Position numbers and translations under genes: made by a program. Positions 5,093 through 56,995 of a stretch of 64,000 nucleotides of DNA are shown one piece after another. Below the pieces are notes generated by a model that searched no databases, was not told the DNA's origin, and was given only the letters and a program-made list of their open reading frames with translations. The stretch spans positions 37,279 to 101,278 of the forward strand of contig CALVZQ010000005.1 of the NCBI GenBank assembly GCA_944372585.1, given 5' to 3'. This DNA comes from an uncultured Clostridia bacterium. GTDB taxonomy: Bacteria; Bacillota; Clostridia; Christensenellales; UBA1242. Positions within the stretch are counted from its first letter, which is position 1. Every line of letters begins with the position of its first letter.

Positions 5093-5194
5093 TTTTCTGC
5101 GTCGCACTCACTTTTGCAAGCAAGTTCGTGCCTCCTTGAAATAATATAAAAATTTTGTCAAAATGCTTTGTGTTTTTGTCGTTTTTTGTTTATA
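5093..5194 (+). repeat. Direct repeat copy 2 (~102 bp), proximal copy carrying the likely active promoter
   Basis: See copy 1; the repeat period is 168 bp. Confidence 0.9.
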
Positions 5195-5196
5195 AT
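5168..5196 (+). promoter_or_regulatory. Sigma-A-type promoter of the giant lipoprotein gene (TTGTGT-17 nt-TATAAT)
   Basis: -35-like TTGTGT at 5168-5173, 17-nt spacer, consensus TATAAT at 5191-5196. The ATG at 5203 lies exactly 6 nt after the -10 box and has no Shine-Dalgarno sequence. Confidence 0.5.
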
Positions 5197-5202
5197 ATAA
5201 CT

Positions 5203-8200: not shown

Positions 8201-10194
8201 ACCTTGAATATGGATATGCTTATGATTTTTACCTTGTTGAAGAAGAGGGCGATCCACTCACTTCAGACAAACTGATTAAGACGTTCGATAGCTTGACATC
8301 ATCGGCACCTGTTGAATTGACATCTGAAGAACTGTTGGAAGGATTGGACAAGCTTACTGATCCTATCAATAAAACTGAGTTTACCGTTTATGTGGTTAGG
8401 CGCTGGAATTCTCCTCCTCCAATCTTCTACATTTATAATGTCATTAACAACTATGAGGACACAGATTATTACAACATAGTTGAATTAGACAATTTCCAAT
8501 CTTTGATTTTTGGTGACTTGTCTGCAAATGAATATTATCAATTATACGGTTCAAACATGCCATCATATGAAGATGATTATCTTGCCTATCTCATCAATAC
8601 TGAAACGGGGACAGTAAACCCTGATGACAGGTATGTGGTGTATTATGATGATATGGTGCAAAGTTTCGTTTTGGAGGGATTTACATTCATTTACACCCCT
8701 CAGCTTGTTCAGAGCAACCTGTTCCAAATTCAAGGTATGACTGTTTTGGATCTTATTAAGACTTATCGGGAGTATATTGATTTTGGCGGAGATTATATGG
8801 TCATATATGCATATAGCACATTGCAAACATATGATTTTTCTGGTGATGCAAACATGAATATTGGAGCGACTTTGAGAGCAACCAGCAAGGAAAACACTTC
8901 AACAACTTTGAACTTCTCAAATGTAAACAAAGTTCATTATTTTGCTCCAGTGACTGTCAGTGTTTCATATGTCCCAATTGGATACGATTTTGTAGGTTGG
9001 TATGCAAATAACAATCTTTTGTCGCTAGATGAAAGTTACACGTTCATTAACGATAGAATGGTTGGCGGTTCGGATAGTCTGACTGTCACAGCAAGGTTTG
9101 TTAGTTACGATACCGTGTCTTCGTCTTATTCAGCAAATTCAAGCAGACAGGTTTACTCTATAAGTTCTGCACAAGATTTGATTTGGTTGAGTCAGCAAGT
9201 GGCAAGTGGAAACACTTTTGATGGTGTAACATTCAATCAGACCGTCGACATTAATATGTCTGGTATTATCTTTAATCCTATTGGTTCGCCTGAAACGCCA
9301 TTTAGGGGCATTTACAACGGAAAGAACTATATCATTAAAAACTTGAATTTAAACACCTATAGCTACAACTTGTCATATCGCGGTTTGTTTGGATATGTTG
9401 ATGGTGCAACAATAAAGAATTTGACCCTTAAAGGTGAAATTTACGCAAGTTATGTGATTAAAGGATATTCTTACTTGGGCAGTTTTGTGGGCTATGCTAA
9501 GAACTCAACTTTCGTTAATTTGAACAATTACAACTATGATATTGAGGCACAGGATATAAATTATTCTTCAAGTTCAAAACCTGTTGTGATTGATTTCTTC
9601 TATGATATTTATGGCAATCAAGCATTGAAACATCTGACTAGTGATGTAAGTTTGGAAGAATATGACGCAAGAATGGGACACGGAGGATTGATTGGTTATG
9701 CTGAAAATTGTTCTTTGTTTGCTTGTTCAAGTCAAAGTTATGTTCGTGGAGTTGAATATGTGGGCGGTCTCGTTGGAGGAAGCTTGAATAGTTCAATTGA
9801 ACAATCTTACGCAATTGGGTCGGTTAATGCTTGCAGGGTTGAATATGATCAAGAATCCAGTGGTGTTTTTGCTAGAGACGAGAATGGAAATTTTGTATTA
9901 AGTTCAAATTCTTATTATTTCTCGCTTCTTGATGGAAGCAATGGAACACATATTTTGCGCTCTTGGGGATTGTCTAGAAACAGTTGGACAGATGGCATAA
10001 GATCTGATTTGATCGGAACCATTGTTGCTGGCGATGACAGTGGAACGTCTGTTGTTGATTGTTTCTGGTCTCAAACAGGGCACAATACCGAACTTGTTGG
10101 CGATATTTCATATTCAACAGGAACAATTTTGGATCCTGACGTTTGGGTGACAGTGAATGGAAAAACAAGATTGAAAGTGTTCTATTGGGCATAA
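5203..10194 (+). CDS. Giant (~1660 aa) surface lipoprotein with GLUG-motif repeats
   Basis: In-frame ATG inside the listed ORF 5155..10194. MKRILLGLFAVFMSLGLAC is a signal peptide with a lipobox-like LGLAC. Two blocks contain many (I/V)GG(I/L)VG motifs (IGGIVGK, VGGIVGY, VGGLVGG...). Each block opens with an 'AQQLARLAYYVNN...FTGNFDGNGYTISGIYI' or 'AQDLIWLSQQV...PFRGIYNGKNYIIKNLNL' module. A GYDFVGWY Listeria-Bacteroides-type repeat is also present. Confidence 0.7.
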   Translation: MKRILLGLFAVFMSLGLACGSVFIIDSSIKTPTENVNTEIDEGEDKEISANTNGYWDDNIGVNWIGEVRNGILYYYVDNAQQLARLAYYVNNNNYYEYNGTRYYLRDAYVELRRDIDLSAHYWIPIGNSYDRSFTGNFDGNGYTISGIYIDSYGLSEICSTYNDGTSTFTEPSSNDQYIDQIAIGLFGYANGAIIGDFNITGSRYSLEFQENSLLSLTVNVGSVVGLLMGGQVAEVESDCDIYIEDSTNTNVATFNYVPTWAIGGIVGKALSNNDISYCFHSGQIELRSPHMFTGMVSVGGIVGYTTNQVSHCSATSSFYTTSHAEVSNIGGIVGLLCISANAVVSIRDNVFNGNFPSGGSFPEGWTISSNGAGTLGGIVGCITTTGDIMDRGYRVNVHECVNYADLSCVGAATSVGGIVGSSYGYSTTDSNSLDVRIFSCANFGNLNIVKCYEGYLYTYPSFSVKRGIGGIIGVSGGGIYVYDTANYGNITCSADGSNTYWNVGGIIGAIARYGFITACINHGRIQANGGQGVGGIVGVSQIIGGSTFESYITNCINYSGVTASQNYGQIVGNRKYRGCTTAYCFYNNKNKGYSGSYSNLVGGYTYINGASRTYSYLRTDVFDYCNDTTSVTFQENDYSPTYSYSSKTFSYSTEYNDRSYSWLMSPLVYYYYSSAERNSRDLTGVNIMVPMAAAEDARVLLQWNKREGDYTTSYSSDIAEISYLSYDEDLNMCVWKSIDSQYQYFPYLKGANYTVGGRAEYLFKVEYVDKHWESPSVAIYHPYSSTISSWPNFEINRDRNSGINTISNVVFMEFANYYYGTSTSQLTFRVQLSSIPQEIVVESYILETYNGYRAEKSDDGGNSEIIYEVEDMAWYHDSVQISAVPNLGYAVKQISMIRESAVDETDEIFYQTVSGSEATSYGSTGSQGDEYIYDFFDGFDVYYVPIVYNYQVIYDWEGAPPPRYDVISMLDRSSNSTIRKSLAFDFDDATVKDASTYYDLEYGYAYDFYLVEEEGDPLTSDKLIKTFDSLTSSAPVELTSEELLEGLDKLTDPINKTEFTVYVVRRWNSPPPIFYIYNVINNYEDTDYYNIVELDNFQSLIFGDLSANEYYQLYGSNMPSYEDDYLAYLINTETGTVNPDDRYVVYYDDMVQSFVLEGFTFIYTPQLVQSNLFQIQGMTVLDLIKTYREYIDFGGDYMVIYAYSTLQTYDFSGDANMNIGATLRATSKENTSTTLNFSNVNKVHYFAPVTVSVSYVPIGYDFVGWYANNNLLSLDESYTFINDRMVGGSDSLTVTARFVSYDTVSSSYSANSSRQVYSISSAQDLIWLSQQVASGNTFDGVTFNQTVDINMSGIIFNPIGSPETPFRGIYNGKNYIIKNLNLNTYSYNLSYRGLFGYVDGATIKNLTLKGEIYASYVIKGYSYLGSFVGYAKNSTFVNLNNYNYDIEAQDINYSSSSKPVVIDFFYDIYGNQALKHLTSDVSLEEYDARMGHGGLIGYAENCSLFACSSQSYVRGVEYVGGLVGGSLNSSIEQSYAIGSVNACRVEYDQESSGVFARDENGNFVLSSNSYYFSLLDGSNGTHILRSWGLSRNSWTDGIRSDLIGTIVAGDDSGTSVVDCFWSQTGHNTELVGDISYSTGTILDPDVWVTVNGKTRLKVFYWA

Positions 10195-10206
10195 ATATCA
10201 AAAATT

Positions 10207-10232
10207 AAAAGACCGAAAAATCGGTCTTTTTT
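10207..10232 (+). terminator. Rho-independent terminator
   Basis: AAAAGACCGA-AAAA-TCGGTCTTTT followed by T residues. Confidence 0.85.
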
Positions 10233-10383
10233 ATTGTCTTTTGTTCTAAGATTGGAGAAAGTTTTATATAGATATTATATGTTTGTTTAATTCGACATTT
10301 CAGGACAAATTTTGCTCATTAATCACAAAATAAGCCTTGTCGAAAATATGGAAGAAGTTTAAAATAAAAGTGAGGTTTGAATA

Positions 10384-11148
10384 ATGCATTTTTATGTTAT
10401 CAAATCAAGAACATTGAAAATTTTTGTCGCTATGGTTTTGGTTGTTGTTTTATTGGCAATATCTTTCAATGGGACAACTTCAGCACAGGTTTATTTCGGA
10501 TATTCAACTCGAAAAGTTCCAATTTATAATGTTGAAACTGAGGAAAAACAAGTTGCAATTTCTTTTGATGCTGCCTGGGGTGCTGACAAGACTCAAGGAA
10601 TTATTGATATTCTTGAAGAATTTGATTGCACTGCAACATTCTTCCTTGTTGGTTTTTGGGTTGATGACTACACAGACATGGTTAAGGCAATTGATGATGC
10701 GGGTTTGGAAATTGGAACTCACTCCAACACACACCCTGACATGGTTAAACTTGACAAAGCCACTATGAAAAGTGAATTGGAAACATCAATCTCAAAAATT
10801 AAAGCTGTCACTGGCAAGGACGTTTCACTTTTCAGAGCACCATTTGGCTCGTACAACAATGACCTTTTGGACACTGCCGAAAGTTTGAATTTGAAAACAA
10901 TTCAATGGGACGTTGACAGCCTTGACTGGAAAGGTCTTTCTGCTTCAGAAATTGCAAACAGGGTTTTGGGCAGAGTGAAAAATGGTTCAATCATTTTGAT
11001 GCACAACAACTCTGACAATGTCTTAGATGGATTGAGATTGATTTTGAACAAACTTAAAATTCAGGGGTATAAAGTCACAAGTGTTTCGGAATTGATTTAT
11101 CAAGACGACTACACCATAGACAGAAATGGCGTTCAACACAAAAATTAA
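10384..11148 (+). CDS. Polysaccharide deacetylase (NodB homology domain, PdaB-like), membrane-anchored
   Basis: N-terminal TM segment. Motifs FDAAWG, FFLVGFWV, HSNTHPDM, FRAPFGSYN, WDVDSLDW, ILMHN. Confidence 0.85.
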   Translation: MHFYVIKSRTLKIFVAMVLVVVLLAISFNGTTSAQVYFGYSTRKVPIYNVETEEKQVAISFDAAWGADKTQGIIDILEEFDCTATFFLVGFWVDDYTDMVKAIDDAGLEIGTHSNTHPDMVKLDKATMKSELETSISKIKAVTGKDVSLFRAPFGSYNNDLLDTAESLNLKTIQWDVDSLDWKGLSASEIANRVLGRVKNGSIILMHNNSDNVLDGLRLILNKLKIQGYKVTSVSELIYQDDYTIDRNGVQHKN

Positions 11149-21671: not shown

Positions 21672-24600
21672 TTATTTTTTCTTAGCTCCTTTTTTCTTGT
21701 CATCTTCAGAAACTTTTTCTGATGATTGTTTTTCAGCCTTCTCTTTTTCTTTGTTAAGTTTCTTGGAAACTTTTGCAAGTTCTTTTTGCTTCATTTCTTC
21801 TTTTGCTGCAACTTTTCTTTCAAGACTGAGCAGGTATTCAGGGGAGTTAAGATTTTCAATTTGTTTATTGAGAGAGTCAATCTTTTCAACAATCACGGTT
21901 CTCTTTTGAGCGAACAGTTTGAATTCTTTGTCTGTTTCTTTTGAAACTTGACCTTTGTCTTTTTCTCTTAAATTCAAAACCTTTTGTTTGTGAAGTTGTT
22001 CAAGATTGTCAAGTTCTTTTTGGAATTTGTCAATTGTTGATTTAACTTCAAGGATTTCTTCATCTCTTTGTTTTCTAGCTTTTAGTTTATTTGCGTCAAC
22101 ATTCAAACTTGATTTTCTGTCATAGGTTTCTTTTTTCTTTCTCTCAACTTTTTTGATTTTGATTTTTCTCAAGATGCTTCCAACAACAGCAATTATGATT
22201 GCAAGACCAGTGATAAGTGATGGAATAATAAGCCAGTTGAAGTTGTTATTGTTTGTTGTTGTCTCTTCGTCATTTGTTGTGTCTTCCGTTGTGTCATCTT
22301 CTGTGCTGTCTTCTGTCGATTCTGCATTTGAAGTGAAAACTTTATCTTCGTTGATGTCATAATTTTCACTTTCTATGGTCTCTGTTGCAGTTGTGTATGC
22401 TGTTTCATCAGATTCTTCAAAAGTGATGTCATAAATCACCATTGAGCCTGAAGTTTCCATAGTGTCGCAAACTAGAGCAATATACAATTGTCCTGACGCA
22501 TCTTCTGTTGGGTGGAAATACATTGTGTATGTTTCATAATCATCGTTTGAAACAAGTTCTGTCATGTAATCAAAACCAGTAAGACCAAAAGTTACGCCAT
22601 AAGAATAGTCTTTGTTATTATCAAGTTCCACTCCATCATTGTTGTAATTGAAGTTTGTCTTAAGTTTGAAGGAAAGAACATAATAAGAATCGGCAGTCAT
22701 GTCAAGATTGAAGTTTGACTGGATCACATAGGAGCCAACACCTTGACTTTGAATAAAGAACACATTTTTGCTTTCTTCATCTTCAGTTTCTTTTTCAATG
22801 TAAAATGGACTGCTTTCTGTGAATTTGTCGCCTTTAACAATTCCACCATTAATTGCACTTCCATCGGAACTTGAAACAGACCCGGAATATGCTGGGGTGG
22901 TGGTTGTAGAAAGGTCGTCGGTGATGTTGTTTGTTGGAATGTTGAGATAGAAGTTTGTCATGTCGACAATTCCAAAGATGTCACCATTTCCTTCTGCTGT
23001 GTTAACTTTGTTGTCATATTCAGATGATTCAATTGTTGCAAGTTCAAAGTTGTCAAAGTAAGCAAAACCTTCAACATTTTCATCAGATGTTCCAAAATCA
23101 ATCACGATGTAAACATTGCTTGCGCCTGCGAAAGATTTAAGATAGATTGAATAATCTTGCCATTTCCCGTTTGTTGAAAGTGCTTCAGATTCAAACAATT
23201 TGAAACCATCTTCGCCATATATCGACACCTTGATTATTGCGTTTTGTGAAGAAGTGTTGTAAGTTTTGTATTTGAAATTGAGTTTGTAAGTTCCATTTGC
23301 ATCAACTGAAATGTTTTCAGAAGTAAGTTTTTGCCAAGAACTGTGAATGTTTGCAAGCATCATGATGTTGTCTGGTTCGGTTTTTGAATTTCTGCTGTTG
23401 CCTGGGTTTGCATAGGTTGCCCAGTAGTATGGGTTGTCAATGTCCTCAACACCGCTTGCTTTAAGTTCGTTATATTTTGCCAAATAGTTTTTATATTGAG
23501 AATCTTCTGTGCTTATGACACCATCAAACAAAAGTCCGTCTCCACCTTCAGTTGTCCAGTTTTGAGCAGTGAGTGGATAGTTGTAGTTATCAATTGTCAC
23601 AAGATTGAAGTTTCCATTTGGAACGGTGAGTGTTCCAGAGAAAGAATTCAGTTCAACTTTGTTTGTTGCAGCATCATATTCTTCTGTTGTTGCTTTTTCA
23701 ACTGTGATGTCGTCAAACACAACACAACCTGTTGCGGTTTCATCACTCTTTCCAAGTCCTAAAGAAACATTGATTGAAGAGTTGTATAATGCTCCGCCTT
23801 TGACATAGAATTCAATGACACCATAGTCGTTCACAAAACTGTTGTCGCCATTTGTTGTCACTGCACTGCTTTCTGTTTGAGTTGTCAAAGTGTATTGGTC
23901 TTCTGTGAGGTTGTAGGCGGTGAGTATGTTGTCATTTTCTTCAACAAACATATAGACATTACCGCTTGAAAGTTCTGAAATTTTGTAGTACGCTTTGATT
24001 TTGTAGATCTCATTTGCATTGATGCTTACGTCATTTGATTTAACATTGACATATTCATTCTTTGCCCAAAGACCCAAAAGGTAGTTGTTTGCAGAAAGTG
24101 TGACTTTTTCGTCATCAATTTCAACTTCGCAAGAAAGGTTTGAACCAACAAAGTCATATCCCGTTATGCTTTTGAAATATTCTGGGCTTTTTGAGTCAAA
24201 AACTTGAGCATTTCCGCTTCCAGATTTTTTCCAATTTTTCAAAGAAGAGATATCTTCGTTGTAAATTCCTTCTTCAAAGTCAAAGTTGTTTGTTGGATAT
24301 TCAATGATTTCTTTGTTTCTCAAATCAAGCAAGCTCACGCAATCAAACACTTCTGTTGTGATCTGACCTTTGCTGTTAGTGATTTCTTGAGTGTAATTTT
24401 TGCCAAAGTATGATTGATATGTTCTCCAGAAAGTGTTTTCGCTGTATTGATAAACATGAACGTCATCAAAGAATGCAACACCACTGCTTTCATGCCCAGA
24501 TTCGTTTGTCCCAAGCCATAGATCAAGGGTGACGCTTTGCTCAGAGTTTCCAGTTGCAACGAAGAAGTAGAAAGTTACCCATTCTTTTGATGAAACTTGG

Positions 24601-25595
24601 ACAAATTCTGCTTTGACAGGGTCGCCATTTTCATCGACAAGTCCTGACAAATACATAGAACCAAAAACATAGTCATTCAAAGAGTCATATTCTGTTTTTG
24701 TTGTGTAGTAAGTTGTTCCTTCTGCAACAGTGTAGTTTGAATTTGCTTCGTTGTATGCGATATTGCAAGTGAAGTAGGTTGCACCATTGTTGACATTGAT
24801 TTGTTCGTCATCTTCTGTTCCAGTTTTCTCTATGTCATTGACTGAAACATAGATTGGTGTTCCTTCGTGCATAAATCCGATGTATTCTTCATCTTCATAG
24901 AAAGGTTGAACATCATTAAGAGCTGTTGCAAGTTGTCCAACTTCAGACAAAGTTTTGTGAAGATAGTATGTTCTGCTTTTATATGTGAAAGAGATATATT
25001 CATCAAAACCTTTGTTTTCAAAGACTGTTTTTCCAATTGTTGTGTTTTCCTCAATTTCAGAAAATTCCACATAGGTTGTGTATGAGTTGTAGTTTGTGTC
25101 ATTCTTGAAAGAAACTTGGAAAGAATAGAATGAATTTGCTTCCAAAGAGATGGCACTTGACTTATAACCTTGTCTTGCTGTGCTGTAGGTTGTGGAATCG
25201 CTTGTCTTTGAATTTATCATCAAAATATACTTATCAGTTGCCTTTGCAAGAGGGTTGTTTGAAAGGTGATAAGTTCCAGTCATATAGTTTTGGAAAGTGT
25301 TTCCAGTGTTGATGATTCCAGCGGTTGTTTTTCTGTCACTAAGTTGACCTGTCCAACCAGAGAGGGAAGTGCTGATAGAGTATGTCGAACTGCTTGAGTT
25401 GAAATTGTTGTTTGTCATACTGACTTCTCTCATATAGCCAGAATAATAATTTGCTGATGTGCTTGATGTGCTGTCATCTGCCTTTGCCAAATCGACATCA
25501 TTCAAAGTGTAGGCGAGTCCTGATGCAGACAAAGGGAGAATTAACGCAAAAATAAACATGATGATTTTGCTTTTGATTGTTCTTAATTTTTTCAT
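21672..25595 (-). CDS. Giant (1307 aa) type I membrane surface protein: signal peptide, four CBM/galactose-binding-like modules, one TM segment, 165-aa K/E-rich coiled-coil cytoplasmic tail
   Basis: N-terminal MKKLRTIKSKIIMFIFALILPLSASGLA. Four modules have similar endings: VTLDLWLGTNESGHESSGVAFFDDVHVYQY, INVSLGLGKSDETATGCVVFDDITVEKA, VYIVIDFGTSDENVEGFAYFDNFELATI and LYIALVCDTMETSGSMVIYDITFEES. TM segment WLIIPSLITGLAIIIAVVGSIL, then a heptad-like K/E tail. Confidence 0.7.
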   Translation of the reverse strand: MKKLRTIKSKIIMFIFALILPLSASGLAYTLNDVDLAKADDSTSSTSANYYSGYMREVSMTNNNFNSSSSTYSISTSLSGWTGQLSDRKTTAGIINTGNTFQNYMTGTYHLSNNPLAKATDKYILMINSKTSDSTTYSTARQGYKSSAISLEANSFYSFQVSFKNDTNYNSYTTYVEFSEIEENTTIGKTVFENKGFDEYISFTYKSRTYYLHKTLSEVGQLATALNDVQPFYEDEEYIGFMHEGTPIYVSVNDIEKTGTEDDEQINVNNGATYFTCNIAYNEANSNYTVAEGTTYYTTKTEYDSLNDYVFGSMYLSGLVDENGDPVKAEFVQVSSKEWVTFYFFVATGNSEQSVTLDLWLGTNESGHESSGVAFFDDVHVYQYSENTFWRTYQSYFGKNYTQEITNSKGQITTEVFDCVSLLDLRNKEIIEYPTNNFDFEEGIYNEDISSLKNWKKSGSGNAQVFDSKSPEYFKSITGYDFVGSNLSCEVEIDDEKVTLSANNYLLGLWAKNEYVNVKSNDVSINANEIYKIKAYYKISELSSGNVYMFVEENDNILTAYNLTEDQYTLTTQTESSAVTTNGDNSFVNDYGVIEFYVKGGALYNSSINVSLGLGKSDETATGCVVFDDITVEKATTEEYDAATNKVELNSFSGTLTVPNGNFNLVTIDNYNYPLTAQNWTTEGGDGLLFDGVISTEDSQYKNYLAKYNELKASGVEDIDNPYYWATYANPGNSRNSKTEPDNIMMLANIHSSWQKLTSENISVDANGTYKLNFKYKTYNTSSQNAIIKVSIYGEDGFKLFESEALSTNGKWQDYSIYLKSFAGASNVYIVIDFGTSDENVEGFAYFDNFELATIESSEYDNKVNTAEGNGDIFGIVDMTNFYLNIPTNNITDDLSTTTTPAYSGSVSSSDGSAINGGIVKGDKFTESSPFYIEKETEDEESKNVFFIQSQGVGSYVIQSNFNLDMTADSYYVLSFKLKTNFNYNNDGVELDNNKDYSYGVTFGLTGFDYMTELVSNDDYETYTMYFHPTEDASGQLYIALVCDTMETSGSMVIYDITFEESDETAYTTATETIESENYDINEDKVFTSNAESTEDSTEDDTTEDTTNDEETTTNNNNFNWLIIPSLITGLAIIIAVVGSILRKIKIKKVERKKKETYDRKSSLNVDANKLKARKQRDEEILEVKSTIDKFQKELDNLEQLHKQKVLNLREKDKGQVSKETDKEFKLFAQKRTVIVEKIDSLNKQIENLNSPEYLLSLERKVAAKEEMKQKELAKVSKKLNKEKEKAEKQSSEKVSEDDKKKGAKKK

Positions 25596-36418: not shown

Positions 36419-36952
36419 TTAATCTGTGTTGATCAAGTTTTCAAAGATGTATTCATATATGTTTGGGGCGTTTTGTCGCCATTTTTTGCAAGCCTCTTCT
36501 GCTGCTTGTCGGGTTGGGGCTTTGACTTGAATTTCAAAAAGCGGGGTGTTGATCAAACTTTCATAGATTCTCATTGTCACAAGATATGAGCCATCATCAG
36601 CGTCTGTGTAGTTGGCGTAGTATTCCTGTGACTGTTTGATGGAAAGTCTGTTTGCTTTGGCATAGTTTGTGATTTCATCACGAAGATTGTTTGGAATTCT
36701 TTTATAGAAATATGACAGACAGTCTCTTCCTTCAAAAGTGAGGTTATATCTCATTTCCCCCTCTTTGCACTCGGTTTTGTAGATGAGTTTTGCTTCAGAA
36801 AGTTGATATAACAGGTCAAGGCAGTCCATGTAGTTTATCCAATTGTTTTTGACAGAACAAATTTCAATGATAGAGTTTTCTGTCAATGGCATTTCCATTT
36901 TGTCCATACAGAAAAGAATTATCAATTTGTTGGTCACTGCATCATAATCCAT
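36419..36952 (-). CDS. DUF4364-like (PadR-like winged-helix) protein
   Basis: ATG after GGAGA (the listed ORF starts 9 codons upstream). NKLIILFCMDKMEMPLTENSIIEI... resembles DUF4364 N-termini. Confidence 0.45.
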   Translation of the reverse strand: MDYDAVTNKLIILFCMDKMEMPLTENSIIEICSVKNNWINYMDCLDLLYQLSEAKLIYKTECKEGEMRYNLTFEGRDCLSYFYKRIPNNLRDEITNYAKANRLSIKQSQEYYANYTDADDGSYLVTMRIYESLINTPLFEIQVKAPTRQAAEEACKKWRQNAPNIYEYIFENLINTD

Positions 36953-37128
36953 AAAATCTCCAAAAATGTATATATGCATTTTATCTTAATTACAAAAAAA
37001 AATCAATTTTTTGTGACTTGTTTGCAAATTAATTTGCTTTTTTGGTTTTATATGCTAAAATATTATGTATTAATTGACTGGCAATTTCACAAGTTTTGTG
37101 ATATCATCAGCCAAGTGTGGAGGTTTTC

Positions 37129-37956
37129 ATGGAAGCAAAAAACATTCTTGATGTAGAAAAATTTGTTTTGGCTTGTAATGATATGTTGAGTGGAAAATTT
37201 CTTGACCTTAACAAAAAACTTGACAAATTCCTTTCTGTGATGACAAAGAGTGAAGACATAATCGATCTTCTTTCCGATTGTTTGGAAGATTTTGATGAAG
37301 AAGCGGAATTTTCAAAAGCTTTTTCTGTGGACAAGAAAACCGGAAGTGTGAAGGTTGCAATCCCAACTGATGACAAAAAAAGATTGGCTCTTTCTGTGAC
37401 CATTTTCAATGATATAATCAATGACAAACTCAACGCCAACCAATTTCTTGAAACCTATTTTCAAGACAGAAAACTCACTCCAATGCAAAATTTTTTGGAA
37501 AAGATTATCAAACCATACCGAGATGTGATTTGCAAACTCTTCCAGCTTGACACAAACATCACAGTTGATGACATCAAAAAACAAATTGAAGAAGAAAAAT
37601 TGTTCAAGAAAGAAGAGGAAAAGAAACAAGAAGAAGCACAATTTCCACACCTTGACGAACTTTTGGCAGAAATTGTCAAGTCTTGCAATCAAATGTTGGC
37701 AATTTTGAAGTTTGAGAAGAAGAGAACTGATGTGCTTGACGATGTTGAATTTGTTGTCAATTCCATTTTGAAAGCCTGTGAGAAACGAGATTTGATGGTC
37801 ATCAATGGTCTTGTGATTGGGCTTAATTATGTTTCCAAAAAATTTAAAAACATCAGACATCTTGTTGCCGATTTGAATGGACTTATTTATGATTATTATG
37901 AATATCTTGCAGGTGGTAATGATGCCACCACTCAAGAAGGTTTGGAAGAAGAATAA
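37129..37956 (+). CDS. Hypothetical acidic helical protein (275 aa)
   Basis: ATG 5 nt after GTGGAGG. Central EEEKLFKKEEEKKQEE linker. No motif recognised. Confidence 0.5.
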   Translation: MEAKNILDVEKFVLACNDMLSGKFLDLNKKLDKFLSVMTKSEDIIDLLSDCLEDFDEEAEFSKAFSVDKKTGSVKVAIPTDDKKRLALSVTIFNDIINDKLNANQFLETYFQDRKLTPMQNFLEKIIKPYRDVICKLFQLDTNITVDDIKKQIEEEKLFKKEEEKKQEEAQFPHLDELLAEIVKSCNQMLAILKFEKKRTDVLDDVEFVVNSILKACEKRDLMVINGLVIGLNYVSKKFKNIRHLVADLNGLIYDYYEYLAGGNDATTQEGLEEE

Positions 37957-37987
37957 TTTTACGCAATGTAAAATTATTTTTTTGTTT
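37954..37987 (+). terminator. AT-rich terminator separating 37129..37956 from the DUF11 operon
   Basis: TAATTTTAC-GCAAT-GTAAAATTA followed by T7. Confidence 0.6.
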
Positions 37988-38041
37988 TAAAAAACATATT
38001 TTCAATTTTTGAATAGAATGATTTTGACAGGAGAAAAACTT

Positions 38042-39364
38042 ATGTCATTCATTCAAAGATATTCAGATATAAAAAGAGGCGGAATCGTTTTTGTTGGAAA
38101 CACTCTTGGTCTCAGCAAGATTGCAAATCTCAACCAAGCAGGAACTTTGGGTTCTATCGGTGCTTTCACATCTTTGGATACAACTTTGAAAGTTAACGAT
38201 TTCCCTTTTGGTACAACTTTAAATTATTTGCAAAATGGGTCTAGTGCGACTCTTACTCTTCCAGTCGGAAGTTCGGTGTTGTATGCGGAACTTGTTTGGG
38301 GTGGACTTTTTAGGTCAACTGCAAACAACATTTCCAATCTTATTGACAATTCCGTCAATTTCACAACACCAAATGGGCTTCAGGTGATTTCTCCTGATGC
38401 TCTCACAAAGCAAACTTTCAACATCAATGTCAACAACATCACTATCGGCTTTTATGTCAGATCAGCAAATGTCACATCGCTAATTCAAAGTGCTGGAAAT
38501 GGCACATACAGTGTGCAAGGTGTTCCAGCACTGATTGAAGCATTGACAAACAGAACAGACGACACCAATCATGCAGGGTGGACTTTGGCTGTGGTCTATG
38601 CAAATCAAAGTCTTGAATTCAGGAGTTTGAATTTGTGGGTTGGTGGAGAAGTGGTTTCTCCATCGACAGGTGTCACAAACATAACTTTGACAGGATTCAA
38701 ATCGCCAAATGAGCCGATTCCAAACGGAAAAATTTTCGTTTCCGCTCAAGAAGGAGACGCTGTCATATCAGGTGATCAAATGTTGTTTGGTGTCAATGCC
38801 GGAAGTCTTACAAATTTGTCTGGACCAAACAATCCAGTCAATAATTTCTTTTGTTCTCAAATCAACAATGAAAATGGACTTTTGGACACCACGGGAACAT
38901 TTGGAACAAGAAATGCCAACGCAAACACTGGCACGAACACCATTGCGTGCAGGCAGGGTTATGACATCACTGCTGTCGATTTGACAGGAAAAATTCAGCC
39001 AGAACAGTCCACTGCATTCATAAGGTTCACTTCAAGTGGAGACTTGTATGTCCCAAACTGCTTGGCAATCGAGATTGACAACGGGGCAAATCCAAGTTTG
39101 ACGGTGATTAAAAGTGTTGACAAGTCTGTCGCAATTCAAGGTGATATCTTGACTTACACTTCTGTTGTGACAAATGATGGAAGTTTGCCACTTACGGACA
39201 CTTTGTTTACTGATGATATCCCTGTGGGAACACAGTTTGTCGCAAATTCCGTTTTCATTGATGGCGTCAACAATCCAAGCTACAATCCACAAACCGGTTT
39301 TTCGATTGGAAATCTTATTCCAAATCAAAGTGTTATTGTCACTTTTCAAGTTCAAGTTTTATAA
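38042..39364 (+). CDS. DUF11-repeat protein A: ~350-aa unassigned beta-rich N-domain plus one DUF11/TIGR01451 repeat; no signal peptide
   Basis: ATG 8 nt after AGGAG (the listed ORF begins at an upstream TTG). C-terminal LTVIKSVDKSVAIQGDILTYTSVVTNDGSLPLTDTLFTDDIPVGTQFV...VIVTFQVQV. N-domain contains HAGWTLAVVYAN. Confidence 0.7.
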   Translation: MSFIQRYSDIKRGGIVFVGNTLGLSKIANLNQAGTLGSIGAFTSLDTTLKVNDFPFGTTLNYLQNGSSATLTLPVGSSVLYAELVWGGLFRSTANNISNLIDNSVNFTTPNGLQVISPDALTKQTFNINVNNITIGFYVRSANVTSLIQSAGNGTYSVQGVPALIEALTNRTDDTNHAGWTLAVVYANQSLEFRSLNLWVGGEVVSPSTGVTNITLTGFKSPNEPIPNGKIFVSAQEGDAVISGDQMLFGVNAGSLTNLSGPNNPVNNFFCSQINNENGLLDTTGTFGTRNANANTGTNTIACRQGYDITAVDLTGKIQPEQSTAFIRFTSSGDLYVPNCLAIEIDNGANPSLTVIKSVDKSVAIQGDILTYTSVVTNDGSLPLTDTLFTDDIPVGTQFVANSVFIDGVNNPSYNPQTGFSIGNLIPNQSVIVTFQVQVL

Positions 39365-39382
39365 TTTTAGGAGAAAAAAATA

Positions 39383-40141
39383 ATGACTATTACAAATTTA
39401 TCAAACACCCAATTCAGTTATACCTTACCAGATGGAACAGTTCAAACAGAGACAAGAGAGAGCAATCTCGTCAACACTGAAGTTTTGACAGATTCTTTCA
39501 CAAAAGTTAAAAGTTCAAACAAAACCTTTTTGCAGGAAGGAGAAACTGCAACACAAACAGTCACTCTCACAAATGGTTCTTTGTTTAACCTTTCCAGTAT
39601 GTTTTTTTCAGACACTCTTTCAACTGGTGCTTCATATGTTCCGGGAACAGTGTTTGTCAATGGAGTATCTCAACCGACCTATGATGTCAACACTGGTTTC
39701 AACATTGATGACATGGCTCCAAATGAGGTGGCAGTCATCACTTATGACATCAAAGCCGACAATCCTTTGACACAGGCCATTGTAAACAACTTCGCAACAA
39801 TCAACTACACCGCGGCTGAAAGACCATTGTCTGAAAACACAAACACTGTTCAATTGGCTGTTGTTTCCAACAGATTGTCAATTGTCAAAACTGTTGACAA
39901 ACCTGTGGCAATCAAAGGAGAAAATTTGCACTATACCAGCACAATCACAAACACAGGAACACTTTTGAAAACAAATCTGATCTTCTCAGATCCAATTCCA
40001 GCAGGTTCAACTTTTGTTGTTGGCAGTGTCAAAATTGATGGTGTGACACAAGCTTCGTACAATCCTGCAACAGGTTTCCCTCTTGCTGACTTGCCAGTTG
40101 GAGCGAGCACAGTTGTTGAATTTGATGTCACGGTGAACTGA
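39383..40141 (+). CDS. DUF11-repeat protein B: two DUF11 repeats, cysteine-free, no signal peptide
   Basis: AGGAG RBS, 18 nt after the previous stop. Repeats are FTKVKSSNKTFLQEGETATQTVTLTNGS...VITYDIKA and LSIVKTVDKPVAIKGENLHYTSTITNTG...VVEFDVTV. Confidence 0.75.
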   Translation: MTITNLSNTQFSYTLPDGTVQTETRESNLVNTEVLTDSFTKVKSSNKTFLQEGETATQTVTLTNGSLFNLSSMFFSDTLSTGASYVPGTVFVNGVSQPTYDVNTGFNIDDMAPNEVAVITYDIKADNPLTQAIVNNFATINYTAAERPLSENTNTVQLAVVSNRLSIVKTVDKPVAIKGENLHYTSTITNTGTLLKTNLIFSDPIPAGSTFVVGSVKIDGVTQASYNPATGFPLADLPVGASTVVEFDVTVN

Positions 40142-40142
40142 T

Positions 40143-40397
40143 ATGGCAGTGATTTCAAATGTTTCTTTTGTCACTGATTTTTCTGTCACCCCTTCAGTTG
40201 TTTTCACCAGCAATCCGGTTCAAACAACAATCATAACAAGGGATCCAGTTGTTCCTGTTGTGCCAGACGTTTTCTATCTCTGTGATGACTGCTGTCCAAG
40301 ATGGAGTTGCCGCTGTCAGAGATGCAATTGTTGCAGAAACAGTTGGCGAATTTCAAGATGCTTAAATCGATGCAATTTCCCACCATACTTCTTTTGA
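40143..40397 (+). CDS. 84-aa protein with a DUF11-linker-like N-half and a Cys/Arg-rich C-half
   Basis: Translationally coupled (TGAtATG). The C-half is CDDCCPRWSCRCQRCNCCRNSWRISRCLNRC, with 10 Cys in 31 residues. Confidence 0.6.
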   Translation: MAVISNVSFVTDFSVTPSVVFTSNPVQTTIITRDPVVPVVPDVFYLCDDCCPRWSCRCQRCNCCRNSWRISRCLNRCNFPPYFF

Positions 40398-40411
40398 TTG
40401 AAAAGTCACTT

Positions 40412-40450
40412 AAAATGCACAATTTTCATGTTGTGCATTTTTCATTTTTT
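40412..40450. terminator. Bidirectional terminator between the DUF11 operon and the convergent glycosyltransferase gene
   Basis: AAAATGCACAA-TTTTCATG-TTGTGCATTTT followed by TCATTTTTT. Confidence 0.8.
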
Positions 40451-40460
40451 ATGAGATGAA

Positions 40461-41522
40461 TTAATTTTGAAAAAATTGATTATTAAAGATCACAGAAGGG
40501 TGGTTTGGTTTTAGTTTTTTTGCTTTCTGATGATACATTTTTGCTTCTTGATAGTCGGTGAAATACAAAAGTTTTGTCAGTTCCAAAAATGGTGTGATGT
40601 TTGAATAGGTCTCTTTGACAAAACCAGCCACTTGTTTTGGACAATAAAGAGCAGATTTATACCAAAAAATCGCTCTTTCTTTTTCGTTTTTCATGTCATA
40701 AAGATGTCCAATCTTGCAACATAATTCTGCAGTCGGGGTGTGATTTTGAAGACAGGCAAAAAGAATGCTTAAAGATGAATCAATTTGGTTTTTCAAAAGA
40801 AAACAATCAGAAAGCAAAACATGTGCGCCATAATTGTCGGGTGGGTATGAATTTTTCATTTTCAAAAACTTTTTAAGATTTTTGATTGCTGAAGAGATGT
40901 AGTTGTTGTAATAGAGTTCTCGGCTGTAATAATACATTTCACGAGCATTGAATTTTTCGCCACGTCTTATTGCTTTGCGATAGAGATTGAGGTTGCGTCT
41001 TCCATCTTTGTTGTCTGCATTTTTTCTGTGTTCAATTTCAATGTCAAGATATTCAATTTTTCCATATGGAGCAATTGCTTCGTGAACAAATCCTTCCCAT
41101 CTGAAGCGGTCTGTGCTTTTGAGCAAGCGTTCGCGAAAATATGTCAGAAATGGAGTGTTGTCTGCATCAAAACCAGTGGAATATTTGAACATATAAACAT
41201 CTGTTTCTGTGTTTGTCGTACTTTTCAATTCCAAGATTTTTTGAATGTTTTTTTGTGTCACAAAATCATCAGCATCAAGCCACATTTGATAATCACAAGT
41301 TGCTTTTGAAAAGGAAAAATTCCTTGCCTTTGAAAAATCATCACACCATTTGAAGTCACAAATCTTGTCGGTGTATTGTTTTGCAATTTCTTTTGTCCTG
41401 TCGGTTGAACCAGTGTCGACAATTATGATTTCATCGGCAAATTGTTTGGCACAATCCAAAAGTCTTGCGATGACCTTCTCTTCATTTTTTACAATCATAC
41501 ATAAACTTATTGTGAACATCAT
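40461..41522 (-). CDS. GT2 glycosyltransferase with a C-terminal TPR-like helical domain (SunS-like architecture)
   Basis: Start ATGATG at 41522, 4-5 nt after AGAGG. The 77 extra N-terminal codons of the listed ORF overlap the divergent gene. Motifs: LCMIVKNEEKVIARLL, DEIIIVDTGSTDRT, LDADDF, then TPR-like helices (REMYYYSRELYYNN...). Confidence 0.75.
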   Translation of the reverse strand: MMFTISLCMIVKNEEKVIARLLDCAKQFADEIIIVDTGSTDRTKEIAKQYTDKICDFKWCDDFSKARNFSFSKATCDYQMWLDADDFVTQKNIQKILELKSTTNTETDVYMFKYSTGFDADNTPFLTYFRERLLKSTDRFRWEGFVHEAIAPYGKIEYLDIEIEHRKNADNKDGRRNLNLYRKAIRRGEKFNAREMYYYSRELYYNNYISSAIKNLKKFLKMKNSYPPDNYGAHVLLSDCFLLKNQIDSSLSILFACLQNHTPTAELCCKIGHLYDMKNEKERAIFWYKSALYCPKQVAGFVKETYSNITPFLELTKLLYFTDYQEAKMYHQKAKKLKPNHPSVIFNNQFFQN

Positions 41523-41625
41523 TTGACCTCTATTTCTTACATATTCCAAAGATTTTGTTTTGTTGCAGTGAAATGTTTTTGAAAAATTCGTGTGGTGTGA
41601 TATGATAATCTCACTGGAGAAAAAT

Positions 41626-43098
41626 ATGTTAGGTGCAATAATAGGTGATGTTGTAGGCTCCAAATATGAGTTTGACAACATCAAATCAAAAGATTTTCCT
41701 TTGTTTTCCAAAGAAAACAAATTCACAGATGGCACGGTGCTTACTTGTGCCATTGCTCAGGCTTGTATGAATTGCAAAGGGGACTATTCCAAATTGCAAA
41801 AAGAGGCAAAAAAATGCCTTTTGGAATTTGGTCGAATTTATATGGCAAATAATGTTGTCGGCTATGGAGAAATGTTCTATGAATGGCTCAAAGACCCAAT
41901 GCCATATCAAAGTTTTGGAAACGGGGCAGCCATGAGGGTTTCTCCACTTGCCTACTTTGCAAAAGACAAAGAGCAACTCAAAGAGATGAGCAGAGCAGTC
42001 ACCATCTTGAGCCACAATCATGTTGAAGCCATCACGGGAGCGGAAGCGGTTGCAGTTTCTGTTTTTATGGCATTGAATGGTGCAAGCAAAGAAGAAATCA
42101 AAAAAGAAATTGAGAAAAATTATTACAAACTCAACTTTGATTATGAGAAACTGGTGAAATCATATCGTTTTGACGTCAGTTGCAAAAATTCAGTTCCACA
42201 GGCCATTTTTTGTTTTTTGATTTCTGATTCTTTTGAAGATGCTCTCAGAACGGCAATTTCAATTGGTGGAGACAGTGACACAATTGCTTGCATAACTTGT
42301 TCAATTGCTGAAGCGTTTTATGGTGTTCCTGTTGGATTGGAACGCTGGGCGCTGAGATATTTGGACAAAAATCTTTTGACTGTTTATCGAAATTTTTGTA
42401 AATCAAAATATTGCGATTATGCAAAAATTCATGGCGAAGATATGTTGAAGGATTTCAATTTTTCTGACTTCGTCAAAAGAAGAAAAAGGTTTTTGAAAGA
42501 AAATTCTGAAAAAAGTTTTGTCATTGTTGAAGGGCAAATCCCTTTGATAATTTCTTCACCGCATGGAGTTTCGCAGGTCAGACTTGGGCAACCAAAATAT
42601 GCAGAACCAGGTTCTTTGTCGCTCGCTCTTGAACTTCAAAAAAGGACCAATGCACATTTGATTGCAAAAACAAAAAATTGCAATGACGATGCAAATTTTG
42701 ATGCAATTTCACCATATAAAGAAGAACTAAAACGTTACATAAAGCAACATAACATCAAATATCTCATTGATTTTCATGGCATGAAAAAGTCGCGAGAAAT
42801 TGACATCAATTTGGGGACAAATTTTGGGCGAAACATTATGAAAGATGAGAAATTGTTTGATTTTCTTTTGCATGGTTTCAATCAAAGAAATTTCAAGGTT
42901 GCAGTTGACAACCCATTCAATGGAGATGCTGATACAGTTTCTGGAGCAATATCACAAAGTTGTGGAATTTGGACGATCCAAATTGAAATAAATTATAGAT
43001 TCACCAACGAAAAAAGATGTGTTGCGTGTCTTCTGGACATTTTGGAAATCATGATTCAAACAATAGATTTTTGCTGTAAGGGGCGAAAATTGCTTTGA
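41626..43098 (+). CDS. Fusion protein: N-terminal ADP-ribosylglycohydrolase (ARH) domain and C-terminal N-formylglutamate amidohydrolase (FGase)-like domain
   Basis: ATG 6 nt after GGAGA. ARH motifs: MLGAIIGDVVGSKYEF, FTDGT, GNGAAMRVSP, GGDSDTIACI. FGase-like motifs: PLIISSPHGVSQVR, LIDFHGM, WTIQIEINY. Confidence 0.65.
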   Translation: MLGAIIGDVVGSKYEFDNIKSKDFPLFSKENKFTDGTVLTCAIAQACMNCKGDYSKLQKEAKKCLLEFGRIYMANNVVGYGEMFYEWLKDPMPYQSFGNGAAMRVSPLAYFAKDKEQLKEMSRAVTILSHNHVEAITGAEAVAVSVFMALNGASKEEIKKEIEKNYYKLNFDYEKLVKSYRFDVSCKNSVPQAIFCFLISDSFEDALRTAISIGGDSDTIACITCSIAEAFYGVPVGLERWALRYLDKNLLTVYRNFCKSKYCDYAKIHGEDMLKDFNFSDFVKRRKRFLKENSEKSFVIVEGQIPLIISSPHGVSQVRLGQPKYAEPGSLSLALELQKRTNAHLIAKTKNCNDDANFDAISPYKEELKRYIKQHNIKYLIDFHGMKKSREIDINLGTNFGRNIMKDEKLFDFLLHGFNQRNFKVAVDNPFNGDADTVSGAISQSCGIWTIQIEINYRFTNEKRCVACLLDILEIMIQTIDFCCKGRKLL

Positions 43099-56245: not shown

Positions 56246-56995
56246 ATGATTTTTGAAAGTTTTGCCTATTTTTTGAGTCGTATTTGTGTCTTTACAAATT
56301 ATGTCAACACGGTGCAGGGGTTTCCAAAACCTCTTTCTTTGGAGGAAGAAAAAGAAGCATTTGAAAAAATGAAACAAGGAGACATGAAAGCAAGAGACAA
56401 ACTTATCAGTCACAATTTGCGACTTGTTGCACATATCGTTAAAAAATATACTTATTCTCTTGAAGCAGATGATTTGTTGTCTGTCGGAACAATTGGTCTT
56501 ATCAAAGCAATTGACACTTTTGATTATGGCAAAAAAGTTCAACTTTCAACGTATGCAGCAAGGTGCATAAACAATGAAATTTTGATGCTTATTCGTTCAA
56601 ACAAAAAGCATAAAAATGTTGTTTCATTAAACAGTTTGACAAGCAATAATGATGAAGACAAAGATTTGGAACTTAAAGATGTTCTCGCATCAGATGATGA
56701 GGAAATTTTTTCTCAAGTTGAAAACAATTTGATCATGCAAAAAATCAAGAATATCATTGCAACAAAACTTGACAAAAGGGAGCAGGCGGTCATCAAATTA
56801 CGCTATGGTATTGACTGTGAAAAAGCCTTAACGCAAAAGGAAGTTGCTCAAGAACTTGGAATTTCTAGGTCCTACATTTCAAGGATTGAAAACAAAACAT
56901 TGAAAGTTATCAAAGAAGAATTTGAGAAAAGTGAGCATACACCAGAAAAGAACGAGGATAAATCTGAAAAAGATAAAACTTTTCAAAAAAATTGA
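56246..56995 (+). CDS. sigK: Sporulation sigma factor SigK (pro-sigma-K), uninterrupted
   Basis: AAGGAG RBS. YVNTVQGFPKPLSLEEE, HNLRLVAHIVKKY, GTIGLIKAIDTF and TYAARCINNEILM match sigma-K better than sigma-E. A hydrophobic ~20-aa pro-sequence is present. Confidence 0.8.
   Translation: MIFESFAYFLSRICVFTNYVNTVQGFPKPLSLEEEKEAFEKMKQGDMKARDKLISHNLRLVAHIVKKYTYSLEADDLLSVGTIGLIKAIDTFDYGKKVQLSTYAARCINNEILMLIRSNKKHKNVVSLNSLTSNNDEDKDLELKDVLASDDEEIFSQVENNLIMQKIKNIIATKLDKREQAVIKLRYGIDCEKALTQKEVAQELGISRSYISRIENKTLKVIKEEFEKSEHTPEKNEDKSEKDKTFQKN

Follow-up and report, generated by a model that had tools for sequence, protein, structure and literature searches.

DUF11 (PF01345), now named CLIPPER in Pfam, is a CnaA-like immunoglobulin (Ig) domain that often has an intramolecular Lys-Asn isopeptide bond; in the crystal structure 9IFR this bond joins Lys715 to Asn806, with Asp748 as the catalyst (PMC12617251). 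DUF11 proteins also form the spore appendages of Clostridium taeniosporum, where their genes stand under sigma-K promoters, and one of them, P29, is made in about 600,000 copies that build the appendages (PMC5749712). Further, F-Anchor-3 of the Clostridial F-type endospore appendage (F-ENA) contains DUF11 domains as its stalk (PMC12357932). Here we describe three adjacent genes, A, B and C, in a stretch of 64,000 nucleotides from an uncultured Clostridia bacterium of the Christensenellales (contig CALVZQ010000005.1), below called the window. In their known form DUF11/CLIPPER proteins are secreted adhesin stalks made in one piece and stabilised from within by isopeptide bonds, while at this locus three co-translated pieces are found, and they are found in hundreds of gut Clostridia species.

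An earlier interpretation, made from the letters of the window alone (the sequence-only reading), had taken these genes for a spore-surface module. The three open reading frames (ORFs) that it gave, with their 18 nt and 1 nt spacing, agree exactly with ours. DUF11/TIGR01451 repeats in A and B are borne out by profile scores that exceed the curated cut-offs: PF01345 gives 34.2 bits for A and 61.1 bits over two repeats for B (cut-off 24.6), and TIGR01451 gives 56.3 and 79.4 bits (cut-off 24). The single DUF11 match of A covers residues 353-439 with both models. C had been described as a Cys/Arg-rich 84-mer, and indeed 10 Cys and 8 Arg are counted, all ten Cys within the last 40 residues. On reading the sequences by eye we also find, as claimed, no signal peptide, transmembrane segment or LPXTG motif in A, B or C; the N-terminal hydrophobic leader and the C-terminal sorting signal of fibrillar adhesins are absent as well. 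None of the three has a Pfam match to DUF3992 or DUF4183, the domains of endospore appendage (ENA) subunits. A phage structural module was considered and rejected, the PHROG search giving only a 20-bit match of B to a PHROG of unknown function.

The arrangement of the three genes is conserved. Our sample comprises about 80 related species-level loci (85 in the comparison of flanks), mainly from Christensenellales gut metagenome-assembled genomes (MAGs). A is intact in 78 loci; 61 of these have a B with a length of 240-280 aa and 57 have a Cys-rich C, and the full triplet with the same tight spacing recurs in 57 of the 78; the flanks differ. Given this recurrence the A-B-C arrangement is far beyond chance, and the proposal of a single operon-like module is upheld. 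In general relatives of A are numerous: 781 occur in the protein collection, and contigs taken from one genome per species contain at least 502. Most come from Christensenellales/Clostridia gut MAGs at 56-76% identity, while those at 48-52% are from Desulfosporosinus, Priestia, Rossellomorea, Trichococcus and an Abditibacteriaceae MAG. An A that is 99% identical to that of the window is encoded in locus L006, on a contig from the MAG of an uncultured Catabacter sp., which we take to belong to the Christensenellales. B has 226 relatives, nearly all of 251-276 aa (one of 243) and all unnamed.

The last domains of A and B are truncated, a split architecture that the sequence-only reading had overlooked. 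On both of them the Pfam DUF11 model is matched over positions 2-84 of 114, and there the protein ends, while the internal domain of B matches positions 6-113. Sequence and profile searches of the PDB with A and B gave 9IFR as the sole match, for B (E 0.039). In the profile alignment positions 6-56 of 9IFR align to residues 165-215 of B, with K169 at the isopeptide Lys715. Asn806 of 9IFR is position 101 of the 123 in the chain, inside the part that is missing from the C-terminal domains of A and B. These two domains, here called acceptors, have the Lys and Asp of the isopeptide triad, but the Asn-bearing strands are absent in cis. As far as can be judged from the sequences, the only conserved Asn able to pair with them is in the following protein, in an N-terminal beta-hairpin that we call a donor.

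The residues in question hardly vary. In the acceptor of A, K357 and D391 are invariant. Among 57 non-redundant B proteins K169 and D203 of the acceptor are 100% conserved, as are K43 and D77 of the complete domain 1, where position 136 is always N or D. The hairpin of B has N5, S27, N28, V30 and T32 conserved at 100% in the same set, and in 56 distinct C proteins the Asn at the position equivalent to that of B is conserved in at least 90%. The AlphaFold2 (AF2) model of B has a predicted local distance difference test (pLDDT) of 96.1, with ten strands in domain 1 and six in domain 2; the strands of the hairpin are at residues 2-5, 8-14, 20-26 and 30-33, with pLDDT above 90. Foldseek matches this model to 9IFR (TM 0.67), to the pilins RrgB and EbpB and to AgI/II C-domains. 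Model and matches together support a CnaA-like Ig fold of B.

In some genomes the parts that are separate in the window are joined in one chain (Table 1). In all fusions the hairpin comes after the truncated domain, with a linker of 4-10 residues. The longest form, A-B-C in 907 aa, is a 13-member cluster that spans many contigs, and it is therefore not an assembly artefact. Further, acceptors and donors are paired by type. After an A-type acceptor the next part is a long-loop donor in 55 of 57 split loci, and so it is at 4 fusion junctions; after a B-type acceptor it is a short-loop donor in 52 of 53 loci, and likewise in 3 loci that lack B and in 1 fusion. That this pairing is kept whichever polypeptide carries each part favours an ordered A-B-C rod over a homopolymer of B.

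Such a homopolymer would be a polymeric, pilus-like spore appendage, in which B polymerises head-to-tail by inserting its N-terminal hairpin into the C-domain of the next B, with A at the tip and C at the base. ENA fibres and chaperone-usher pili would be the model for it. In its favour, B combines a donor with an acceptor, the acceptor domains of the two types resemble each other, and P29 of C. taeniosporum (269 aa, two DUF11 repeats) has, by its description, the size and layout of B (PMC5749712). However, the long-loop donor of B is the type that follows A-type and not B-type acceptors, and the pairing is nearly perfect. The fused forms have exactly one B or none, and whole loci are without B, which makes B look like a spacer module rather than an essential polymer subunit. 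In our view polymerisation of B is rather unlikely.

A number of results weigh against completion of the truncated domains in trans. Pfam chimeras of an acceptor with the real, a shuffled or the wrong hairpin gained at most 2 bits, and shuffled controls behaved alike. In hhalign the A+B chimera extended the alignment (115 columns, +5 in score) and the B+C chimera did not, with similar results for reversed controls. A hidden Markov model of the tail of B domain 1 did not separate the hairpins from 20x shuffles. As these tests were uninformative or negative, our case that the hairpins are homologous to the missing strands is built on their position, the fusions and the conserved residues, and not on similarity of sequence. 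In the AF2 model of an A-C fusion the hairpin is of low confidence (pLDDT about 50-60), because only 3 sequences cover it. Further, the B-type hairpin of the fusions has a domain on either side and may be part of the one after it, as in principle the hairpin of B may be of B's domain 1. For the hairpin of C there is no alternative partner, since only the Pro linker and the Cys tail come after it.

The same non-significant tests speak for A, B and C being independent coat or exosporium components, whose shortened, 7-strand CLIPPER_2-like Ig domains need no completion in trans and whose N-terminal hairpins simply extend the proteins that carry them, with no covalent joint. PF24346 (CLIPPER_2, a more compact domain; PMC12617251) weakly matches the start of these domains, and confidence is high along the whole AF2 monomer of B, so that the hairpin of B may pack on domain 1. 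However, C contains no domain that its 33-residue hairpin could join, although conservation in C is confined to this hairpin, and the invariant Lys and Asp without an Asn partner in cis, the fusions and the pairing are all left unexplained. We consider independent components unlikely, and think that each truncated domain is probably completed in trans by the hairpin of the next protein. An intermolecular Lys-Asn isopeptide bond at these joints, read from the conserved residues, is plausible but speculative, and on the whole it seems to us somewhat doubtful.

Gene C deserves a separate description. Profile searches with C matched no family, and a protein search with it gave zero candidates in a collection of 5.8 billion proteins, and for this reason its relatives were recovered by position in the related loci. 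The DNA 3' of B almost always has a small ORF whose start is about 1 nt from the end of B. The 56 distinct C proteins found in this way are 57-149 aa long and have only the first ~33 residues in common, with the consensus M..i.N.S.v.d.s...p....SN.V.T; beyond the hairpin there is a Pro-rich linker and then a hypervariable tail with 5-27 Cys. The gene finders used for several public records did not call this gene. Since its position is nevertheless conserved in more than 50 species, C is a systematically missed small gene. Examples are 40143-40397 in the window, 10100-10339 in locus L001, 10097-10372 in L002 and 2955-3326 in L005.

The head domain of A (residues 1-345) is its most conserved part, with dozens of invariant residues. 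Sequence and profile searches found no relative of it in the PDB. In the AF2 model of the A-C fusion the head is beta-rich and of moderate confidence (pLDDT about 45-85), and when the 645-aa fusion model was searched with Foldseek generic Ig repeats dominated and the head had no specific fold match. An exhaustive search found the head in 1625 clusters at 50% identity, 360 of them at E < 1e-30. In the best 150 of the 1625 clusters it is N-terminal, apart from a few short fragments, and starts at residue 1 or after a leader of 20-70 aa, in proteins of 350-5010 aa. The head is thus a large uncharacterised domain family of about 1600 clusters, which deserves a model of its own.

Two of its relatives are giant proteins. 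The head of A is 50% identical to the N-terminus of a 5010-aa DUF11 "cell surface protein" of B. mycoides/B. cereus, and likewise to that of a 4888-aa protein of Priestia koreensis that is built of CLIPPER repeats. In both the head starts at residue 1, with no leader, and CLIPPER repeats come after it. Versions with a Sec leader occur in non-Firmicutes (locus L085, 2941-6273), and a further member of the head family is found from 6980 onwards in L080. The A-B-C operon is thus a miniaturised, split version of this widespread family of head plus CLIPPER stalk.

We aligned the 160 nt upstream of A in 69 non-redundant loci. The motif AC-N16-18-[C/A]ATAnnnT[A/G] is present in 56 of them (81%), compared with 3.8 +/- 1.7 (maximum 9) in shuffles, which were dinucleotide-blind, and with 18 of 414 (4.3%) upstream regions of other genes at these loci. 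The base 5' of the AC is A or C in all 56, although this was not required by the search. For the appendage genes of C. taeniosporum the sigma-K consensus is quoted as mACm-N16-CATA-N3-TA (PMC5749712); only 11 upstream regions match this strict form. The element of the window, aAC-N16-AATAGAATG, matches 4 of the 6 specified -10 bases and leaves a very short leader before the ribosome-binding site (RBS). We predict that the upstream element is a sigma-K-type promoter.

A mother-cell promoter of the sigma-E type had been suggested from the window sequence. The mother-cell part of this suggestion stands, with 56 of 69 loci against 4.3%, while the sigma-E part does not, as an AC at -35 and a spacer of 16-18 nt are those of sigma-K. 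Between the ACATATT box and the -10 element there are only 11-12 nt, where the sigma-E consensus expects 14 nt, and the AC-N16 spacing suits sigma-K. The same reading had stated that the genome encodes sigK. This is correct: the ORF at 56246-56995 scores 269 bits with the SigK subfamily model NF004471, over its cut-off of 252, and lower with the SigE, SigF and SigG models.

In some loci, those with a 567-aa A, the leader that runs from the sigma-K-like promoter to the RBS has in addition a conserved hairpin, at about 15-90 nt 5' of A; it is absent from the window. It is seen in L028, L032, L035, L037, L039, L051, L069 and others, and consists of CTACATAT, a self-pairing, covarying core of 20-25 nt, ATATGTAG and then T7-9. 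It looks like an intrinsic terminator/attenuator or an mRNA-stabilising stem, and an Rfam search with it returned no family.

A SigK gene in the window, three proteins that have no secretion signals, a tail rich in Cys, and known DUF11 spore proteins as precedents all point to a mother-cell product that ends up on the spore surface. Such a role, already proposed in the sequence-only reading, is the best reading, as the conserved mother-cell promoter of the sigma-K type gives it comparative support. It should be kept in mind that several facts about the clade and the family weigh against it. Cultured Christensenellaceae are described as non-sporulating. The papers that we read give no microscopic record of sporulation in Christensenellales, and with SpoMAG only a minority of the MAGs of this clade are classed as spore-formers (PMC12536801). 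Further, some relatives of the head have signal peptides (L085) and one lies in Trichococcus, so the head family is not specific to spores.

Some of these facts would also fit a vegetative cell-surface or biofilm-matrix adhesin, unrelated to spores and freed by lysis or by an unrecognised export route. It is doubtful whether Christensenellales sporulate, CLIPPER is a typical domain of fibrillar adhesins (PMC12617251), and head plus CLIPPER is found in Sec-secreted proteins of non-spore-formers, such as L085 of the Abditibacteriaceae and the many proteins with leaders of 20-70 aa. However, A, B and C have no signal peptide, the promoter kept at 81% of the loci is of the sigma-K and not the sigma-A type, with SigK present, and the leaderless relatives that can be named are mostly from spore-forming taxa (Priestia, Rossellomorea, Desulfosporosinus and the B. 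cereus group). A vegetative adhesin seems quite improbable to us.

Taken together we lean towards a head-stalk-anchor spore fibre, made in the mother cell from A, B and C by strand completion in trans and possibly locked by isopeptide bonds. In this scheme one fibrillar-adhesin-like rod would have been split at two domain boundaries. A would give the 345-aa head and a CLIPPER domain without its last strands; the hairpin of B would complete this domain and be followed by one full and one truncated CLIPPER domain; and the hairpin of C would complete the last domain of B, with the Pro-rich linker and the Cys-rich tail after it. The operon would be transcribed from the sigma-K-type promoter in the mother cell, late in sporulation. 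As there are no signal peptides, A, B and C would meet in the mother-cell cytoplasm and assemble 1:1:1 from head over stalk to anchor. By analogy with fibrillar adhesins the head would be at the distal end and the Cys tail at the C-terminus would be the anchor, tying the rod into the cysteine-rich outer layer of the spore with the head pointing outward. The joints may lock by autocatalytic, intermolecular Lys-Asn isopeptide bonds, since the acceptors keep the Lys and Asp and the matching Asn is on the incoming hairpin. That the result is a natural SpyTag/SpyCatcher-like ligation, giving an ordered covalent spore fibre of Christensenellales that needs neither enzyme nor secretion, is a bolder and more tentative proposal, which we think rather doubtful.

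Table 1. Positions in the window of the A-B-C genes, their domains and the associated elements, followed by fused or shortened forms in other genomes. Acceptor and donor denote proposed roles.
Feature	Position	Strand	Length	Remarks
Upstream hairpin and U7	37951-37987	+		AU-rich; likely terminator of upstream gene 37117-37956; 5' module boundary
Sigma-K-type promoter (predicted)	37994-38020	+		-35 AC 37994-37995; 16-nt spacer; -10 AATAGAATG 38012-38020
Gene A	38042-39364	+	440 aa	GGAG at 38030-38033 precedes ATG
A head domain	38042-39076	+		residues 1-345; beta-rich, very strongly conserved, without Pfam model
A C-terminal truncated CLIPPER (acceptor)	39077-39364	+		residues about 346-440; ends at profile position 84/114
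Gene B	39383-40141	+	252 aa	18 nt gap from A; stop codon included
B N-terminal beta-hairpin (donor)	39383-39490	+		residues 1-36; long-loop type
B complete CLIPPER domain 1	39491-39871	+		residues about 37-163; K43, D77, N/D136
B C-terminal truncated CLIPPER, domain 2 (acceptor)	39872-40141	+		residues about 164-252; K169, D203
Gene C	40143-40397	+	84 aa	1 nt gap from B (TGAtATG); stop codon included
C N-terminal hairpin (donor)	40143-40241	+		residues 1-33; short-loop type
C Pro-rich linker and Cys-rich tail	40242-40397	+		linker residues 34-44; putative anchor
Downstream intrinsic terminator	40412-40441	+		operon end
SigK-type sigma factor gene	56246-56995	+		probable trans-acting factor; physically outside module
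Fusion L054			830 aa	A-B, junction ...FRVRIN-QTGETS-MIIPNQSKINFDY..., then separate C
Fusions L019, L034, L055			641-659 aa	A, hairpin and Cys tail
Fusion L066 (P0241)			907 aa	A-B-C in single chain
L021, L060				A then directly C, without B
Rossellomorea, Trichococcus			494-514 aa	head, one domain with cis hairpin, short Cys tail

The operon had been placed between two terminators, and hairpins are indeed found on both sides, the upstream one being weaker. The downstream terminator has a 12-bp stem (-14.8 kcal/mol, z -4.8) followed by a U-run. The upstream hairpin, at 37951-37979, has -8.8 kcal/mol and z -3.0 and is followed by U7; its stem is kept in L001 by compensatory changes.

Downstream of C there are two enzyme genes. 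One matches GT2 (78 bits) and the other ARH (121 bits) and FGase (40 bits), so Pfam confirms both domains of the ARH-FGase fusion that had been named. Of the GT2-TPR glycosyltransferase the GT2 part is found, while the TPR match is under its cut-off. Both genes were expected to be co-conserved with A-B-C. However, they are found only in L001 and L006, loci of the same genus (2 of 85 loci), and in general no flank family is present in more than 9 loci. Even in L001 and L006 a formate-tetrahydrofolate ligase (FTHFS) gene and a DUF308 gene sit between C and the glycosyltransferase gene. As these are the closest relatives, the adjacency seen in the window is a strain-level rearrangement, by deletion or insertion. 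The stretch in question is 9357-11720 in L006 and 10340-12660 in L001, and is missing at 40398-40460 of the window. The module is therefore A-B-C alone, and the two neighbouring enzyme genes are unrelated to it. Glycosylation of the fibre, which had been thought possible, is unsupported, since the glycosyltransferase gene is not co-conserved with A-B-C and is missing from all loci outside the genus.

The glycosyltransferase had also been called SunS-like, which would suggest a ribosomally synthesised and post-translationally modified peptide (RiPP) cluster of the glycocin kind, with C as a Cys-rich precursor that the adjacent enzyme S-glycosylates. C is small and Cys-rich, an ABC transporter is encoded 2 kb upstream, and the SunS model TIGR04195 is the best NCBIfam match of the glycosyltransferase. 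Its score is 59 bits against a cut-off of 350, however, and the label cannot be kept. Further, the gene is confined to one genus and in L001 and L006 lies two genes from C, the conserved hairpin of C is fused to A or B in other genomes, and no C39 peptidase or thiol-disulfide oxidoreductase is conserved nearby. A glycocin-like cluster is extremely improbable, being effectively refuted by the lack of co-conservation of the glycosyltransferase.

The longest ORFs of the two enzyme genes, 40461-41753 (-) and 41590-43098 (+), overlap by 164 nt. Compared with L001, the glycosyltransferase probably starts at 41522 (MMFTISL..., 353 aa) and the ARH-FGase protein at about 41602 (MIISLEK...). With these starts there would be no overlap and the two genes would be separated by a short divergent intergenic region. 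Upstream of A are the genes of a DUF4364 protein (36419-36979, -) and of a 279-aa acidic protein without family (37117-37956, +), which are syntenic only within the genus and have no link to A-B-C.

Elsewhere in the window two large ORFs may be further surface or structural proteins: 5155-10194 (+), with 1679 aa and only a GLUG motif, and 21672-25595 (-), with 1307 aa and no family match. A polysaccharide deacetylase at 10384-11148 (+) has PdaB as its best model (203 bits, under the cut-off of 237) and may be related to sporulation. The presence of the SigK-type gene is itself of note, given the description of the cultured members of the clade as non-sporulating.

If the proposed assembly is true, it would be a new route to a spore-surface fibre, by ordered completion of Ig domains in trans through cognate pairs of tag and acceptor, and it may be a natural source of orthogonal self-ligating protein tags. 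As a covalent fibre on the spores of Christensenellales it would also be direct molecular evidence of sporulation in an abundant gut clade that is nominally non-sporulating. The module, with its predicted sigma-K promoter, the SigK gene and a putative leaderless, Cys-anchored fibre, offers a concrete marker with which spore formation in Christensenellales can be tested. Sporulation of this clade, which is health-associated and heritable, bears on its transmission from host to host.

How does the locus compare with described systems? The sequence-only reading knew of no named system that it matched, but DUF11 spore proteins are known, namely P29 and CRD of C. taeniosporum and CrdA-C of B. cereus (PMC5749712). 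The P29a/P29b and CRD1/CRD2 proteins are, like A-B-C, leaderless DUF11 proteins of the spore surface, encoded in clusters with predicted sigma-K promoters, and the resemblance of P29 to B in length and domain layout is one of description. In contrast to A-B-C they are partnered with the collagen-like glycoproteins GP85 and CL2 and not with a Cys-rich C, and the CRD proteins start with DUF11 repeats, without the 345-aa head of A.

The CLIPPER fibrillar adhesins, to which 9IFR belongs, are like A and B in domain family, in the positions of Lys and Asp and in the logic of head, stalk and anchor. Their bonds are intramolecular, and they are made as one Sec-secreted polypeptide with sorting signals (PMC12617251). 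In A-B-C, on the other hand, two of the three domains are truncated and their missing strands, with the Asn, would be supplied by the first part of the gene that follows; the proteins lack a signal peptide, and a Cys-rich tail is the putative anchor. The giant proteins of B. mycoides/B. cereus and Priestia koreensis are single polypeptides with dozens of repeats, for which neither a split nor a Cys-rich mini-protein is described; the 5010-aa protein may be one of CrdA-C (2011, cited in PMC5749712).

The S-, L- and F-ENA resemble the proposed A-B-C fibre in their way of assembly. They are spore fibres that self-assemble without secretion, an N-terminal connector docks into the next subunit and Cys residues cross-link them, but their subunits are DUF3992/DUF4183 jellyrolls in long homopolymers. 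The chemistry and logic predicted here are also those of SpyTag/SpyCatcher and isopeptag/pilin-C, in which a strand with the reactive residue completes an Ig-like domain that has the Lys and the catalytic acid, so that two proteins are joined covalently. SpyTag systems are man-made, engineered from split isopeptide domains. Archaeal threads combine a donor strand with an intermolecular isopeptide bond, but they are secreted homopolymers of another fold (PMC9715654). Compared with both, the split of A-B-C would be natural, heterotypic and ordered from A to B to C.

An analogy with chlamydial OmcB/OmcA had been drawn as well. There too a DUF11 protein is co-encoded with a small Cys-rich protein, and in the dormant form the two belong to a shell that is cross-linked by disulfides. 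However, both proteins are exported, and OmcA is a lipoprotein; they have no head domain, and there is no sign that strands are donated. The analogy is superficial only, since the conserved part of C is a CLIPPER-type hairpin and not just cysteines. What is new at this locus with respect to the known DUF11/CLIPPER proteins is the three-way split with cognate hairpin tags, the predicted sigma-K-type promoter and the hypervariable gene for a Cys-rich, putative anchor.

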